Under the pieces are notes generated by a model. The model made no database searches, was not told the origin of the DNA, and saw nothing but the letters and a program-made list of their open reading frames with translations. Position numbers and translations under genes: made by a program. From Minisyncoccia bacterium (GTDB taxonomy: Bacteria > Patescibacteriota > Minisyncoccia > UBA6257 > 2-01-FULL-56-20), in assembly GCA_050008535.1 (NCBI GenBank), contig JBEKML010000001.1:260633-324632 (forward strand): a DNA stretch of 64,000 nt. Direction: 5' to 3'. Shown in pieces: positions 35,735 through 53,314 of this stretch; positions within the stretch are counted from its first letter, which is position 1, and each line of letters begins with the position of its first letter.

Positions 35735-35805
35735 GAAATATGGGAATGTGCCAAATATGACACAAAACAGGCCGTGTCAAAATATGACACGGCACTGTCA
35801 TTTTT
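35735..35805. repeat. cluster of TGACAC/GTGTCA hexamers (direct AAATATGACAC x2 plus inverted copies) at left edge of phage-like island
   Basis: gaaatatgggaatgtgccAAATATGACACaaaacaggccGTGTCAAAATATGACACggcaCTGTCAttttt. Confidence 0.6.
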
Positions 35806-35935
35806 CTCAATCGATAAGGTTTTGGGAAGTTTTCACTATACTGAAGCAAGGTCGAATTCTGCGCGCGTTCTCCGTGCAAAGCGACACGGATCGGCGCGGT
35901 TAAAAAATAAACCCGAAAAACCATATAATACAAGT

Positions 35936-36304
35936 ATGGACAAAATGGATAAAACCAACCAAACCCGCGAGGGAGCCAATCCTGATGCCTTCGACGGTGG
36001 CACGGACGATCATAATTCCCGGCTCGACCTTATCGGCGACGGCGAGTATATGATAGCCCGTATTGCCTGCCCGAATTGTGGCGGCGTGGCGAAAACCCCA
36101 AAGATTAAGTCGAATGAACCTTACGAAGCGCGCAATGTCCGCTGCAGGAAGAAATGCGGCATCGACGGCTTCGACTGGCATTACGAGCCACAAAAGGTCG
36201 GCGACCGCTACACCTATATGAACAGTTCGGCGAGCGTTTCGGCAGACAATATGCCCAAAATGAAAATCTATAACGAGAGGCGTAACTTTTTGTCGAACAA
36301 GTAG
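35936..36304 (+). CDS. hypothetical zinc-ribbon protein (CPNCGG...CRKKCG)
   Basis: ATG 6 nt downstream of a TATAAT box (possible leaderless). The ORF-track GTG start at 35774 lies within the repeat cluster. Confidence 0.45.
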   Translation: MDKMDKTNQTREGANPDAFDGGTDDHNSRLDLIGDGEYMIARIACPNCGGVAKTPKIKSNEPYEARNVRCRKKCGIDGFDWHYEPQKVGDRYTYMNSSASVSADNMPKMKIYNERRNFLSNK

Positions 36305-36592
36305 TTATACATGATGCGGGGCTGGCGCTTATTGCGCCGTCCGGCAACTGGAAGTCAGATTAACAATTCGAACGCGGTTCCTTGCCCGAGCAATCGGGAC
36401 ACATAGCCGCTTACCTGTTCCCACGAACCATATCGCGGGAGCCGGTAAGCGGCTTTTTTGCCGTTACGGTCGATCAATGGCAAAAAATGGAAACTCTCAA
36501 TTGCAAATGCCGGAATCGGCAAAAGAGGATCAGGCGGAAACCACCCGGAAGGGTCGAGGATATGAATGCAAGCGAAATTTATAAGCAAAACC

Positions 36593-36985
36593 ATGGCAAA
36601 AACTGAAAATTCGGTTATCAAAATCGGTGAAAATGACCGGACGGGAGACGGCAACCTGCGGCCGGAGGCCAAGGAAAAGGCGCGCAGGATGGTTGCAGAA
36701 TATGTGCGCGAGACGGGGCGGGTCAACATATCCGAGCTTTCCAAGGAACTGGCTCTGTCGCGCCCGACGGTGCGAAACTTGGCGGACGAGGTACTCGCGG
36801 ATTGGCGCGGGGAAATCGAGGATCAGGCGGTGGTGATCCATAAATGGTGCGAGCGCGTGGCGAAAGAAATTGACGCGCGGCCGGATGACTTCGACAAGGA
36901 TGAGATTGCGCGCGTCCGGCTCAAGCTCCAGATGCTCGACAAGATGCGGGCGATGCGGAAGGTGCTGCGTAGGGGCGGCGAATAA
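36593..36985 (+). CDS. HTH DNA-binding protein (phage regulatory or small-terminase-like)
   Basis: ETGRVNISELSKELALSRPTVRNLADEV helix-turn-helix; precedes the ParB-MTase. Confidence 0.45.
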   Translation: MAKTENSVIKIGENDRTGDGNLRPEAKEKARRMVAEYVRETGRVNISELSKELALSRPTVRNLADEVLADWRGEIEDQAVVIHKWCERVAKEIDARPDDFDKDEIARVRLKLQMLDKMRAMRKVLRRGGE

Positions 36986-37033
36986 TCGGCAGGCAGTGGT
37001 CGGAAAAATAAATTAATCAATAAATTTAATCAA

Positions 37034-38419
37034 ATGGAACACGTTGATGAAAATACAATCAGGCAGACAATGGCGTTTATGGACGTAAAAATATCGGACA
37101 TCGTTTTTTCAGACAAGAATCCGAGGAAGATCGGCGACGAGGGCCGTACGACGCTCCGCGCGAGCGTCCAAGGCGACCCCGACTTCTTCCGGGCGCGGCC
37201 AGTGATCCTCTCCAACCGCACCGGCAAGCCCGTCATGGTCGCGGGGGAACAACGGGCGCGCGCGGCGCAGGACTTGGGTATGGCGACCATCCCGGCGATC
37301 ATCGTGACACTCACCGAGGAGAAGGAGAAAGAATGGTCACTGAAGGATAACTTGCATCAGGGAGAATGGGACTGGAACATATTCAAAGAATTGGGCCTCG
37401 ACGACGATTTCCTGAAAAAGGTCGGATTCACGAGCGAGCAGCGCGACGAGATCTTCAAGATCGAGGTCGAGCCAGAGCAGTTCGACCTTTCCCGCGCGCT
37501 CGAAAAAATCGACATCCATAAAATCGATGCCCAGAAGGGCGACATCTACGACCTTGGCGGCGGCTCGCGCCTGATGGTCGGCGACAGCACCGTGCCGGAG
37601 GAGTTCGCGAAGCTCATGGGCGGTGAAAAGGGCGAGAAAGCGGACCTTTGCCTCACCGATCCCCCCTATATTTTGGACTACTTGCACGGGAAGAAAAAGA
37701 AAGGCGCGGCAGTGACCGGCTTCGGCGCGAAGCGCGACCGCCGGTATCTCGAAACGGATTCGCTGCCGGACAACTTCACGGAACTTTGGATGCGGAACGT
37801 GAAGGCGGCGGCGAAGGACGATTTCCACATCATCGTGTATGAGAACTGGAAGAATATCCGCACGATCTGGAACGAGATGGAGAAATACTGGAAGGTGAAG
37901 AACATGCTGGTGTGGCATTTGCCGAACCGCGTGCAGGGGTTCGCCGCGAAGTTCAAGTTCTTTTCGAAGCACGACATCGCGATGGTTGGCAGCTCGCGCG
38001 CAGCGGAAGAGCTGAACCTCGAGCCAGAGGAAGAGCTTCTCGAAAACGAATACGAGACCGCGCTCTACGCGGTTTCCGGCAAGCCGCACTGGGAGGGATA
38101 TGAAAAGGGCAAGCGGATCTGCCCGACGGATTTCATCGAGCACGTCGCCGCTGATGAGAAGTCGAGCGGGCAGGGCGTCGTCTTCGGCACGAAGCCGCTC
38201 GAGATCCTCATCCCGTACATCAAGGTTTTGACGAAGCGGGGCGACCTCGTCCTTGAGCCGTTCGGCGGCAGCGGGTCAACACTCGTCGCCGCGCATAAGT
38301 TGGGACGGCGCTGCTACGCGATGGAAAAAAGCAATGTATACGCGACCGTGATCATGAAAAGGTTCGAAAAAGCAACCGGCATAACGCCGAAGAAAATCTC
38401 CGATGGACGAGACCAATAA
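37034..38419 (+). CDS. ParB-like nuclease domain fused to N6/N4 DNA methyltransferase (phage-type ParB-MTase)
   Basis: N-terminal ParB/Srx motif (VMVAGEQRARAAQDLGMATIPAII), DPPY catalytic motif, C-terminal FGGSGST AdoMet motif. Confidence 0.85.
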   Translation: MEHVDENTIRQTMAFMDVKISDIVFSDKNPRKIGDEGRTTLRASVQGDPDFFRARPVILSNRTGKPVMVAGEQRARAAQDLGMATIPAIIVTLTEEKEKEWSLKDNLHQGEWDWNIFKELGLDDDFLKKVGFTSEQRDEIFKIEVEPEQFDLSRALEKIDIHKIDAQKGDIYDLGGGSRLMVGDSTVPEEFAKLMGGEKGEKADLCLTDPPYILDYLHGKKKKGAAVTGFGAKRDRRYLETDSLPDNFTELWMRNVKAAAKDDFHIIVYENWKNIRTIWNEMEKYWKVKNMLVWHLPNRVQGFAAKFKFFSKHDIAMVGSSRAAEELNLEPEEELLENEYETALYAVSGKPHWEGYEKGKRICPTDFIEHVAADEKSSGQGVVFGTKPLEILIPYIKVLTKRGDLVLEPFGGSGSTLVAAHKLGRRCYAMEKSNVYATVIMKRFEKATGITPKKISDGRDQ

Positions 38420-52296: not shown

Positions 52297-52322
52297 CACG
52301 GTTTGCGACTTGGGCGTATACT
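52293..52322 (+). promoter_or_regulatory. consensus promoter TTGACA-18-TATACT
   Basis: Exact -35; TATACT -10. Confidence 0.5.
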
Positions 52323-52328
52323 CGCTAA

Positions 52329-52570
52329 TAGCTGTTGACGCATCTGCGTCAGGAGAAAGAGCAGGGTGAAGCGTAACCTATCAAACGGACGTGGTATCCC
52401 GTCTCGGTCAACTCGATAGTTGTTCTCCATTGCGTACGCAAAAGGCGAAACGCCTGCCCTTCCTAGCTCCGCTTGCGGAACTTGTGAACCGGTAGCGCAT
52501 CTCCCTCCGGGAGCGCCAAATCAAACAGCGGGGCGGTATCACTTCGGTGATGCCGCCCCTTAACTTTTTT
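52329..52570 (+). ncRNA. candidate ~240-nt small RNA (promoter to strong terminator, no ORF longer than 17 codons in sense)
   Basis: Bounded by the promoter above and a terminator GGGGCGGTATCAC-ttcg-GTGATGCCGCCCC plus TTAACTTTTTT at 52530-52570; internal palindrome TGACGCATCTGCGTCA. Confidence 0.35.
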
Positions 52571-52637
52571 ATGGCAAACAAAAAAGGCGATGCGTTTGGC
52601 GACGCTCGCCCAATGGAACTCGGCACTGCCGTGATTT

Positions 52638-53062
52638 TCATGCTTCAATGACGGATTCATCAATCATCTCCTCGGGATCCGGCTCGTACTTGCGAATAGC
52701 ATCGCCGCCGATGCGATGGCGGAACGCGTGGAGGATCGCTTTCGGTGCTTGGGTTCTCGAATAGACGGGACTTTCTTTCCGCAATCCATAGCTCAATTTC
52801 ACGCTTTGGAAATCGTATTCTCCCACTTGGAGAATCCAGCTTGTGTGGGTGGCAAGCTCGAAGAACGTCAGGGCGTTCATTGGCTTGCCAATTGCCTTCG
52901 CGATACCTTTCATAATATCGAAAGCCGAGTTGGTGGTTGATGCCCCCTGCGGCAGTTCGCGTATGTCAGCTATGCCGCAGTAGACGATTACGGCAGCTTG
53001 CACGACGTATTCCACAAGCGCTCCGGGAGCATATTCAAACGTTTCAATTTTCAATTCCATCG
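52638..53062 (-). CDS. hypothetical protein
   Basis: AGGGAGG RBS 5 nt before the internal Met of the ORF-track entry 52638..53363. The longer version would overlap the tRNA-like gene. Confidence 0.45.
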
Positions 53063-53231
53063 GAACCTCCCTTACTGCTTGGATGGTAGCAGATTGCCAT
53101 GCCCGGTGTCCAATTGATTTTCGGTGCGCCAAAAAAAGTTGAGGGGCGTTCCGGCTCAGTGGAACACCCCTTTCGCCCGTCCGACCAAGGAGAATGGACG
53201 CGGAGGACGGGAAACAAACTATGCATGAAAC

Positions 53232-53314
53232 CGGAGCGGGGCGGGGTTGAACCGCCGACCAGCGGAACTGGAAATTCGAACTGTCCGCCGCTCTACCAGC
53301 TGAGCTACCGCCCC
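53232..53314 (-). tRNA. atypical tRNA-like gene: Ala-like acceptor (G3:U70), canonical D and T arms, but a 17-nt anticodon loop containing a palindromic 10-mer AGTTCGAATT
   Basis: Manually folded GGGGCGG-TA-GCTC-AGCTGGTA-GAGC-G-GCGGA-[CAGTTCGAATTTCCAGT]-TCCGC-TGGTC-GGCGG-TTCAACC-CCGCC-CCGCTCC-G. Removing the 10-mer leaves loop CTCCAGT (anticodon CCA). Confidence 0.55.

Follow-up and report, generated by a model that had tools for sequence, protein, structure and literature searches.

How the chromosome of a small bacterium comes to hold the DNA-packaging motor of a tailed phage, with no recognisable genes for the shell that such a motor fills, is the question raised by a 64,000-nucleotide stretch of contig JBEKML010000001.1 (positions 260,633 to 324,632 of the forward strand), referred to here as the window. 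The source contig is Ga0427963_0000021 (496 kb) of Joint Genome Institute (JGI) metagenome 3300038451, and the NCBI record with the exact large terminase protein is labelled "MAG: Minisyncoccia bacterium" (MAG, metagenome-assembled genome); the window is chromosomal DNA of a bacterium of the candidate phyla radiation (CPR; Minisyncoccia, Patescibacteria). An earlier note on this DNA had described a phage-derived island of 17.5 kb and had offered three readings of it: a satellite resembling phage-inducible chromosomal islands (PICIs), a domesticated packaging module, or a very divergent prophage. The island is about twice that length (33,956 bp) and is very probably a member, mobilised by a large serine recombinase (LSR), of a family of elements that combine a ParB-methyltransferase fusion, a small terminase-like protein (TerS-like), a large terminase (TerL) and the LSR. 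The satellite reading fits best of the three, and whether the island is a helper-dependent phage satellite appears to us evenly balanced. The best explanation as a whole, which we consider just on the probable side, is an integrative mobile element that is a capsid-less, "terminase-only" satellite packaged in the procapsids of a helper.

The extent of the island follows from comparison with contigs in which its site is empty. JGI metagenomes were scanned with a 30-mer (window 35610-35639) chosen just inside a first estimate of the left junction at 35604/35605; the 30-mer is in fact chromosomal flank just outside the true left junction, and the scan gave two contigs, L176 and L177, both without the island. 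The two flanks of L177 are 99.96% and 99.5% identical to the window genome, and those of L176 93.3% and 99.6%. In both contigs the window sequence up to 35641 is fused directly to position 69592 and onwards with a 6-nt overlap, CTGCGG, which places the junctions at 35641/35642 and 69597/69598 and the insert from 35642 to 69597. Positions above 64000 are window-equivalent positions taken from contig L174 (gene calls, Pfam). The island thus runs 5.6 kb beyond the window end, and the segment flagged in the earlier note is its left 52%, starting about 95 bp inside the left end and stopping 16.3 kb short of the right one. The 34 kb behaves as a single unit that near-identical strains either carry or lack, which answers the presence/absence check that had been proposed for related genomes. 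The sequences that define the site are as follows.

35636-35641: attL core CTGCGG, at the left junction.
Window-equivalent 69592-69597: attR core, the second copy of CTGCGG, within the 3' end of tRNA-Ser(GCU).
Window-equivalent 69593-69682, minus strand: tRNA-Ser(GCU), whose last nucleotides the core overlaps.
Junction sequences: attL CATTTCTGCGGGCAGCTCGG; attR TTGTACCTGCGGAGGCGGAA; attB CATTTCTGCGGAGGCGGAAGG; predicted attP GAAATTGTACCTGCGGGCAGCTCGGG.

Another group of empty sites (L169-L171) agrees with the window genome in left synteny, its cfa gene being 92% identical and its DNA flanks 92-95% identical. Here cfa and IF-2 are separated only by tRNA-Ser(GCU), and RbfA follows IF-2; in the window genome IF-2 lies at window-equivalent 69749, past the window end. 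A 78-bp deletion seemed to be present when the empty site L169 served as reference, but it is strain divergence, as the 99.96%-identical empty site L177 shows.

The earlier note was right to look for the 3' end of a tRNA gene as integration target, but the target is tRNA-Ser(GCU) beyond the window end and not the tRNA-like gene at which the note had placed the right boundary. That gene is real and atypical, but it is internal to the insert, where it counts as cargo, and it was dismissed as an att site for this reason. In the same way the cluster of TGACAC hexamers proposed as the left boundary is real as a local feature but lies inside the true left end. The suggested check for direct repeats, applied to the atypical tRNA and to a link between the two proposed ends, returned chance-level repeats only, and direct repeats of either tRNA (the atypical one or tRNA-Ser) were not found. 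Serine recombinases exchange strands at a very short core and do not need a direct repeat that matches the tRNA, so the absence of one is expected for an element with this type of integrase. More usually, tRNA targets are used by tyrosine integrases.

35753-35800: cluster of repeats with a palindrome, about 115-160 bp inward of attL.
53231-53315, minus strand: atypical tRNA-like gene (Rfam 52.5 bits; ARAGORN Arg-TCG with a shifted anticodon stem).

The cluster holds AAATATGACAC in two exact copies and a hairpin with a 9-bp stem, GCCGTGTCA-AAATA-TGACACGGC, at 35771-35793. TGACAC occurs 15 times in the window, which is the chance level, yet three copies fall within 33 bp (35758-35790), in both copies of AAATATGACAC and in the hairpin. 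The cluster scored as terminator-like on both strands and is a candidate operator or bidirectional terminator. The anticodon loop of the tRNA-like gene measures 17 nt (CAGUUCGAAUUUCCAGU) in an otherwise perfect cloverleaf. The gene is not repeated elsewhere and turned up in copies of this element only; it may represent a pseudo-tRNA, a decoy or a tRNA that carries a mini-insertion.

The statement that the segment holds no integrase is correct within the coordinates first flagged, but an intact recombinase is present in the part of the island that lies past the window end, 1.6 kb from the tRNA-proximal end.

Window-equivalent 66662-67996, plus strand: intact LSR of 444 aa with Resolvase (PF00239), Recombinase (PF07508) and Zn_ribbon_recom (PF13408) domains.
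40918-41172, plus strand: small protein resembling the zinc-ribbon domain of LSRs (Zn_ribbon_recom 1e-8; phrog_95 integrase 1.2e-8).
41169-41751, plus strand: two CxxC zinc-ribbon open reading frames (ORFs) of 70 and 121 aa (JGI gene calls and translations; no Pfam or PHROG match).

The LSR reaches 666 bits with the profile of the family recombinases (hmmsearch), is 60-73% identical to the LSRs that adjoin TerL elsewhere, and has an N-terminal YARKST motif that aligns to the family consensus YaRkSs. Its distance from TerL, 26 kb, exceeds the largest gap among 47 other loci (8.3 kb). The position at which most relatives carry the full recombinase gene is occupied here by the protein at 40918-41172, for which tblastn gives alignments with family LSRs over residues ~283-400 (E 1e-8 to 1e-6) and which is a possible recombinase relic. 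The idea that it derives from the island's own LSR was rejected, as its resemblance to the intact LSR (E 0.05) is not particularly close and its matches to the family zinc ribbons are weak.

The left part of the island contains the core genes of the family, preceded by two smaller genes.

35936-36304, plus strand: ORF of 122 aa with CxxC...CxxxC zinc-ribbon motifs (JGI gene call; weak Lar_restr_allev match, 0.006).
36593-36985, plus strand: protein of 130 aa with a helix-turn-helix (HTH), at the variable position that precedes the methyltransferase (weak matches to DUF2089, 4.9e-4, and HTH_24).
37034-38419, plus strand: core gene 1, fusion of ParB_N and N6_N4_Mtase (PF02195 and PF01555; phrog_498 1.6e-63).
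38403-38897, plus strand: core gene 2, small terminase-like HTH protein, overlapping both neighbouring genes.
38872-40479, plus strand: core gene 3, TerL, with ATPase and nuclease domains (phrog_38 6.5e-74).

A promoter-like TTAAAA-18-TATAAT at 35900-35929 precedes the 122-aa ORF in a promoter scan. The 130-aa HTH protein is a probable regulator judging from its weak domain matches. A conserved gene at this position was considered and dismissed; across family loci the position is filled by several unrelated families, with Sigma70_r2-like proteins in the closest relatives. The three core genes overlap one another, and the earlier assignments of all three are borne out. The ParB-methyltransferase carries a GEQRARAA box, DPPY and FGGSGST and is a predicted N6A/N4C DNA methyltransferase. 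The genes of the island are largely co-directional, as had been noted, but the JGI gene calls include a few small minus-strand ORFs. Several of the small proteins do carry the paired CxxC motifs of zinc ribbons, and one matches Zn_ribbon_recom; the presumed HNH protein (51334-51861), by contrast, has no Pfam or PHROG match.

The profile of TerL relatives matches the PDB large terminases 8dgc and 4bij over the ATPase domain only. In an alignment of 21 relatives the invariant columns are K76, D178/D179/E181, D322, D416 and D457/D460, which by our own reading would be the Walker A lysine, the Walker B motif DDxED and the acidic residues of the nuclease; on these residues TerL looks functional. 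A suspected Walker A defect (RGSAKST in place of RGSGKST) was dismissed since alanine is common in the family. The identification of the small terminase is weak but consistent. The protein matches phrog_4044 (2e-7) and, below the Pfam cut-off, HTH_Tnp_1_2 (3e-5), and the family profile has no match among PDB sequences. An AlphaFold2 model made from database homologues is all-helical, with a predicted local distance difference test (pLDDT) of 80, and its best Foldseek matches in the PDB are 2ao9 (phBC6A51), 3hef (Sf6 small terminase) and 7joq (NV1 small terminase) at weak E values of 0.1-2.

This module is widespread. TerL has about 3,000 database relatives, the best 120 of which are 52-71% identical, many of them on contigs of a size typical of CPR genomes (100-550 kb). 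A scan of one genome per species gave at least 363 confirmed species-level matches, mostly with CPR labels, and IMG/VR gave 263 family matches. Of 80 genome loci that were fetched, 53 are labelled as CPR from many lineages, including Saccharibacteria, Peribacteria, Woesebacteria, Dojkabacteria, Moraniibacteriota, Berkelbacteria, Gracilibacteria and WWE3. Among the first 79 loci, the only genes common to the window and more than three others are the methyltransferase, TerS and TerL. The architecture was counted over 131 non-phage loci, with those loci that have enough flank as denominators: the ParB-methyltransferase lies upstream of TerL in 101/104, a TerS-like gene directly upstream of TerL in 81/104, and an LSR of about 440 aa downstream on the same strand in 47/62 (median gap 936 bp). 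The LSR often begins within 250 bp of TerL, and otherwise lies beyond 1-8 kb of cargo. In the closest TerL relative (71% identity) the four genes are contiguous in the order ParB-methyltransferase, TerS, TerL, LSR. A tRNA is found downstream in 24 of the 55 loci with a downstream LSR, in every case on the opposite strand and with the 3' end towards the element; 11 are Ser, 11 Gln and two Glu, and some of these tRNAs are 144-241 bp from the LSR stop codon. The window element shares these features, with a TerL in the family clade described below, the colinear ParB-methyltransferase and TerS-like genes, the family LSR, the 3' end of tRNA-Ser and no structural genes. The same gene order without mobile hallmarks in related genomes had been named in the earlier note as evidence against its reading; the opposite was seen, the core coming with a recombinase and a tRNA attachment site.

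A LexA/S24 repressor is adjacent in 19/79 loci, and the recurrent cargo of the family comprises Type I and Type III restriction-modification (R-M) systems, cyclic oligonucleotide-based antiphage signalling systems (CBASS), reverse transcriptases and a PDC-S11 candidate, the kind of cargo that satellites and defence islands are reported to carry. A cluster of reverse transcriptases is seen in 10 loci, and in a Roizmanbacteria element (L003:19003-20373) a pair resembling a diversity-generating retroelement, RVT_1 with bAvd, sits between TerL and the recombinase. Thirteen loci have two TerL paralogues (e.g. L024, L026, L035, L036, L038, L040, L043, L092, L093, L095, L096, L098), arranged in tandem in 12. 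The two in L036 (8346-9959 and 9977-11539) are 57% identical with Walker A and B intact in both, and in some of these loci the first paralogue takes the usual TerS-like position. Single IMG/VR contigs of 25-55 kb (L099/L110, L128/L129, L120/L130) hold two different methyltransferase-TerS-TerL(-LSR) modules each; therefore one genome can host several elements.

Relatives of TerL in cultured phages are distant, the best identity being below 30%. The relatives in IMG/VR are of two kinds: those with the LSR-type module, and those in phage-type loci, with TerLs at 35-46% identity. In the latter, referred to as sister phages (e.g. L159-L168, L137-L142), TerL is followed by a portal(-MuF) gene (3e-107), a prohead protease, an HK97 major capsid (6e-90), an adaptor, and neck and tail genes, and it is often preceded by a ParB-methyltransferase and a protein at the small-terminase position. 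None of 25 phage-type loci has an LSR. A neighbour-joining tree of 166 TerL sequences, rooted at the midpoint, separates one clade with 103 LSR-linked and 35 unassigned sequences from another with 23 portal-linked and five truncated ones. The window TerL falls within the LSR-linked clade, with a median identity of 51% to LSR-linked and 40% to phage TerLs. Because LSR-linked and portal-linked TerLs form separate clades, the capsid-less architecture looks like a single, old and successful derivative of a phage packaging module, not the product of repeated decay.

The reported lack of capsid, portal, protease, tail and lysis genes holds for the whole island. No head, connector, tail or lysis family was found in the ORFs scanned against Pfam and PHROGs, which included all ORFs of at least 250 aa. 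Hidden Markov models (HMMs) of the sister-phage portal, protease, capsid, adaptor, neck and tail proteins found nothing in 95 LSR-type loci save two small ORFs. The ORFs of at least 250 aa in the 34 kb are mostly identifiable enzymes, R-M subunits, proteases and the recombinase; the remainder comprises a hydrophobic protein, a secreted-looking one and a few without assigned function, and no candidate for a portal or tape-measure protein is among them. The full 33,956-bp interval has no portal, capsid, tail or lysis genes and is thus not an intact tailed prophage. The Pfam and PHROG matches of the island also include no replication module.

These observations can be joined into a model in which the element supplies the packaging motor and a phage supplies the shell. 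The LSR would act at the tRNA 3' end, both to integrate the element and to excise it. After induction, a packaging site in the element would be recognised by the TerS-like protein, and the element's own TerL would then cut the DNA and pump it into the procapsids of a helper phage of the sister lineage, whether co-infecting or resident. ParB-like proteins are known to activate DNA-modifying enzymes in phages (PMC13229309), and the ParB-methyltransferase may methylate the DNA to be packaged, either for protection in the next host, for control of cleavage at the packaging site, or both. The interval between TerL and the LSR would serve as a cargo bay, the largest seen being the 26 kb of the present element, which holds metabolic enzymes, an odd tRNA, an insertion sequence (IS), a Type III R-M system, a LOOT RNA and proteases, where relatives carry R-M systems, CBASS or reverse transcriptases. 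In functional terms the element would belong to those satellites that have no complete morphogenesis module and redirect packaging, here by means of the TerS-like protein and TerL, with packaging into virions as the step that we infer.

Several points weigh against the satellite model. No helper phage was identified for this genome, and the sister phages have no assigned host. There is no sign of encapsidation: neither circular contigs nor terminal repeats occur among 170 loci, and IMG/VR contains nothing that matches the predicted attP junction. The TerS assignment depends on the weak scores given above. The conserved core has no recognisable replication module, which leaves the formation of packageable concatemers unexplained. 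The family statistics are built on crude ORF calling and BLAST clustering, and 20 of the 80 genome loci bear unverified non-CPR labels from automated MAG submissions. These labels (Gammaproteobacteria, Bdellovibrionales and others; e.g. L010, L012, L013, L015, L019) come nearly all from one third-party annotation (TPA) co-assembly project, and the loci are either mislabelled CPR bins or a sign that the family reaches beyond the CPR. Finally, with 26 kb of cargo including an IS the present copy is atypical for the family and may be past its mobile prime, although the presence/absence polymorphism argues otherwise.

One alternative is a decayed prophage. A temperate phage integrated at tRNA-Ser could have shed its structural and lysis genes, keeping the terminase, methyltransferase and recombinase as remnants, with later insertions filling the gap, and such a decayed prophage would account for the gene order ParB-methyltransferase, TerS, TerL, which is ancestral in the sister phages, for the recombinase-like zinc-ribbon fragment after TerL, for the IS and mosaic GC of the cargo and for a length of 34 kb, the size of a phage genome. 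We nevertheless regard it as unlikely, given that the same capsid-less architecture is seen in more than 130 loci from many CPR lineages with intact ORFs and invariant TerL catalytic residues, and that strains with 99.96% identity in the left flank differ cleanly by the presence of the whole 34 kb. The position of all LSR-linked TerLs in one clade apart from the portal-linked ones likewise indicates one origin followed by radiation. A complete prophage whose structural proteins have diverged beyond recognition is scarcely credible; many ORFs do have no family assignment, but most of those of at least 250 aa are identifiable and none suggests a portal or tape measure, and the sister structural proteins, which PHROGs recognise easily, yield HMMs that find no counterpart here.

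Other alternatives accept the element as it stands and give the terminase a different role. A recombinase-mobilised island could use it against phages, to compete for or poison the procapsids of related phages that enter the cell, or as a methylation-guarded nuclease in a restriction-like defence. The constant pairing of a DNA methyltransferase with a nuclease-containing TerL would suit this, as would the richness of these elements in defence cargo, the two tandem TerL paralogues of some members and the rarity of CRISPR-Cas in CPR genomes that is described in PMC6509639. Neither TerL nor TerS matches a PADLOC defence model, however, and the joint retention of TerS and of both the ATPase and nuclease motifs is what packaging needs, so that such a role is improbable as a substitute for packaging. 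Interference and self-transfer are in any case not exclusive; known satellites do both. The terminase might also be part of a domesticated host function akin to a gene transfer agent, with capsid genes elsewhere in the genome and vertical inheritance in the CPR. The very wide CPR distribution at 50-60% TerL identity, by our own estimate about that of housekeeping proteins across CPR classes, is the attraction of this idea, which is made highly implausible by the presence/absence polymorphism between near-identical strains, the dedicated integrase and tRNA att site, the variable cargo and chromosomal neighbours, and the occurrence of two elements on single contigs. The island itself does not qualify as a gene transfer agent, being polymorphic and equipped with an integrase, with no head-tail genes in the 72 kb of the genome that were inspected.

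The terminase-only satellite model can be set beside the satellites already described. PICIs and the related Staphylococcus aureus pathogenicity islands (SaPIs) encode a small terminase, a tyrosine integrase, a primase-replicase and regulators of the Stl or AlpA type, use the TerL of the helper and measure about 10-15 kb. The present island resembles them as a site-specific island without capsid or tail genes, with packaging redirection and with accessory and defence cargo, but differs in having an LSR, its own TerL and a ParB-methyltransferase, no recognised replication module and mostly CPR-labelled hosts. It shares the possession of both TerS and TerL with the capsid-forming PICIs (cf-PICIs), which, reportedly described by Alqurainy et al. 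in 2023, are said to encode portal, protease, major capsid and connector proteins as well and to steal tails only; none of those four was detected in the island. The PICI-like elements (PLEs) of Vibrio cholerae are integrated and excised by an LSR according to PMC6002521 and PMC9638900. The use of an LSR is the point of likeness, and the island shares no sequence relationship with PLEs. To our knowledge PLEs encode no terminase; they have their own replication initiator and integrate in Vibrio repeats, not in tRNA genes. PICMIs (chromosomal minimalist islands that are phage-inducible) are characterised in PMC10803314 as minimalist satellites without capsid-remodelling genes that are packaged as concatemers and protect their host. 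They differ from the present island in a core devoted to excision and replication, in their integration next to fis in Vibrionaceae and in having no TerL, methyltransferase or LSR. The sister phages are alike in having a TerL about 40% identical and often a ParB-methyltransferase ahead of it; what follows TerL is structural genes in the phages, and the LSR and cargo in the elements. No description of or name for the ParB-methyltransferase/TerS/TerL/LSR module was found in the literature, and the family is apparently undescribed.

The remainder of the island is cargo, most of it in the interval between TerL and the LSR.

41767-49250, plus strand: cargo operon of 7.5 kb (Pfam) with a lower GC of ~0.49.
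49502-53060: small ORFs without assigned function, including 51970-52296 (zinc ribbon) and 52638-53060 (minus strand); no Pfam or PHROG match.
54543-55352, minus strand: IS-type DDE transposase (Pfam DDE_Tnp_1_3 2.6e-22).
55350-55395: inverted repeat with perfect 21-bp arms around a 4-nt spacer; it adjoins the transposase gene at its start and lies just upstream of res.
55456-58446, plus strand: res of the Type III R-M system (Pfam ResIII; PADLOC REase_III 1.5e-6).
58458-60896, plus strand: mod of the same system (Pfam N6_N4_Mtase; PADLOC MTase_III 5.3e-206).
60908-62553: hydrophobic protein of 377 aa, probably membrane-bound (minus strand), and a 119-aa protein (plus strand; phrog_33624), from translations and PHROGs.
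62612-62747, plus strand: LOOT RNA (RF03000; Rfam 70.6 bits against a gathering score of 46.4).
62780-63001, plus strand: YidD-like ORF, beginning 33 nt downstream of the LOOT RNA.
62780-64000, plus strand: cargo made up of the YidD-like ORF, an 89-aa ORF and the start of a secreted-looking protein of 320 aa.
Window-equivalent 64289-66519 (L174:5523-7753): trypsin-like protease with a TIG domain, 534 aa, and an adjoining HslV/proteasome-like peptidase, 164 aa (phrog_1040 3e-22), just upstream of the LSR.
Window-equivalent 67977-69532 (L174:2510-4065): two co-oriented genes for proteins of 297 and 220 aa, between the LSR and attR.

The operon at 41767-49250 encodes a fusion of a nucleotidyltransferase-like and a histidine phosphatase domain, guanylate-kinase/PhnN-like, GT8-like, RPE-like, uridine-kinase-like P-loop and Nudix proteins, an unknown protein of 308 aa and a YegD-like Hsp70. 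These enzymes are divergent, every NCBIfam match lying below its cut-off, and the operon has no homologues in the 160 other loci; judging from the domains, its role may be in the salvage of nucleotides or sugars or in glycan modification. A role of the glycosyltransferase, kinase and epimerase genes in DNA hypermodification, prompted by PMC13229309, is unsupported, as no dioxygenase or hydroxymethylase accompanies them. The 297-aa and 220-aa proteins have no match in Pfam, PHROGs or PADLOC, and the position of their genes suggests a hotspot for an uncharacterised two-gene system.

The LOOT RNA recurs in the family. Rfam confirmed full-length copies in 7/7 further family loci tested, and a search of about 160 loci with a covariance model based on 15 copies added 27. 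Altogether 28 of ~135 LSR-type loci carry it (e.g. L082:12450-12569, L009:7327-7445, L077:12445-12566, L075:12961-13089), and it is found in no phage-type or host-only locus. Often the RNA is placed in the interval from TerL to the recombinase gene, on the opposite strand, and mostly 50-90 nt upstream of a co-directional cargo gene; by this placement it looks like the 5' leader of cargo genes, not a free small RNA.

To the left of the island lie host genes for aminopeptidase N, a GyrB-like protein, DHODH, an ABC exporter, NusG, a DEAD helicase, a Cache protein and a pilin-like protein. A further tRNA-Ser, with anticodon GGA, was called by ARAGORN at 7209-7296 and is not listed in the Rfam gathering-threshold scan of the window.

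34464-35603, minus strand: cfa (cyclopropane-fatty-acid synthase), host gene to the left of the island.

A 2025 preprint states that the existence of satellites for viruses of CPR bacteria is not known (10.1101/2025.02.15.638363). If the satellite model is true, the present family would answer that question with the first satellites reported for CPR-bacterial viruses, and would represent a new satellite architecture in which the packaging motor comes with the element and the shell is stolen. It would also offer a testable system, with defined attB, attP, attL and attR, a conserved serine integrase at tRNA 3' ends and candidate helper phages. For genome engineering, too, LSRs that are compact and highly conserved and have short defined sites are of interest. 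The orphan LOOT RNA gains a genomic home. CPR bacteria make up a large share of bacterial diversity with tiny genomes, mostly without CRISPR, and their gene exchange and phage resistance are poorly known. Tentatively, and with less than even confidence, we propose that they host a phylum-wide, undescribed class of satellites with TerS, TerL and a ParB-methyltransferase, without a capsid, and with an LSR acting at tRNA-Ser or tRNA-Gln, which would hijack the procapsids of sister phages and be the main shuttles of defence genes, metabolic genes and LOOT RNA among these bacteria.

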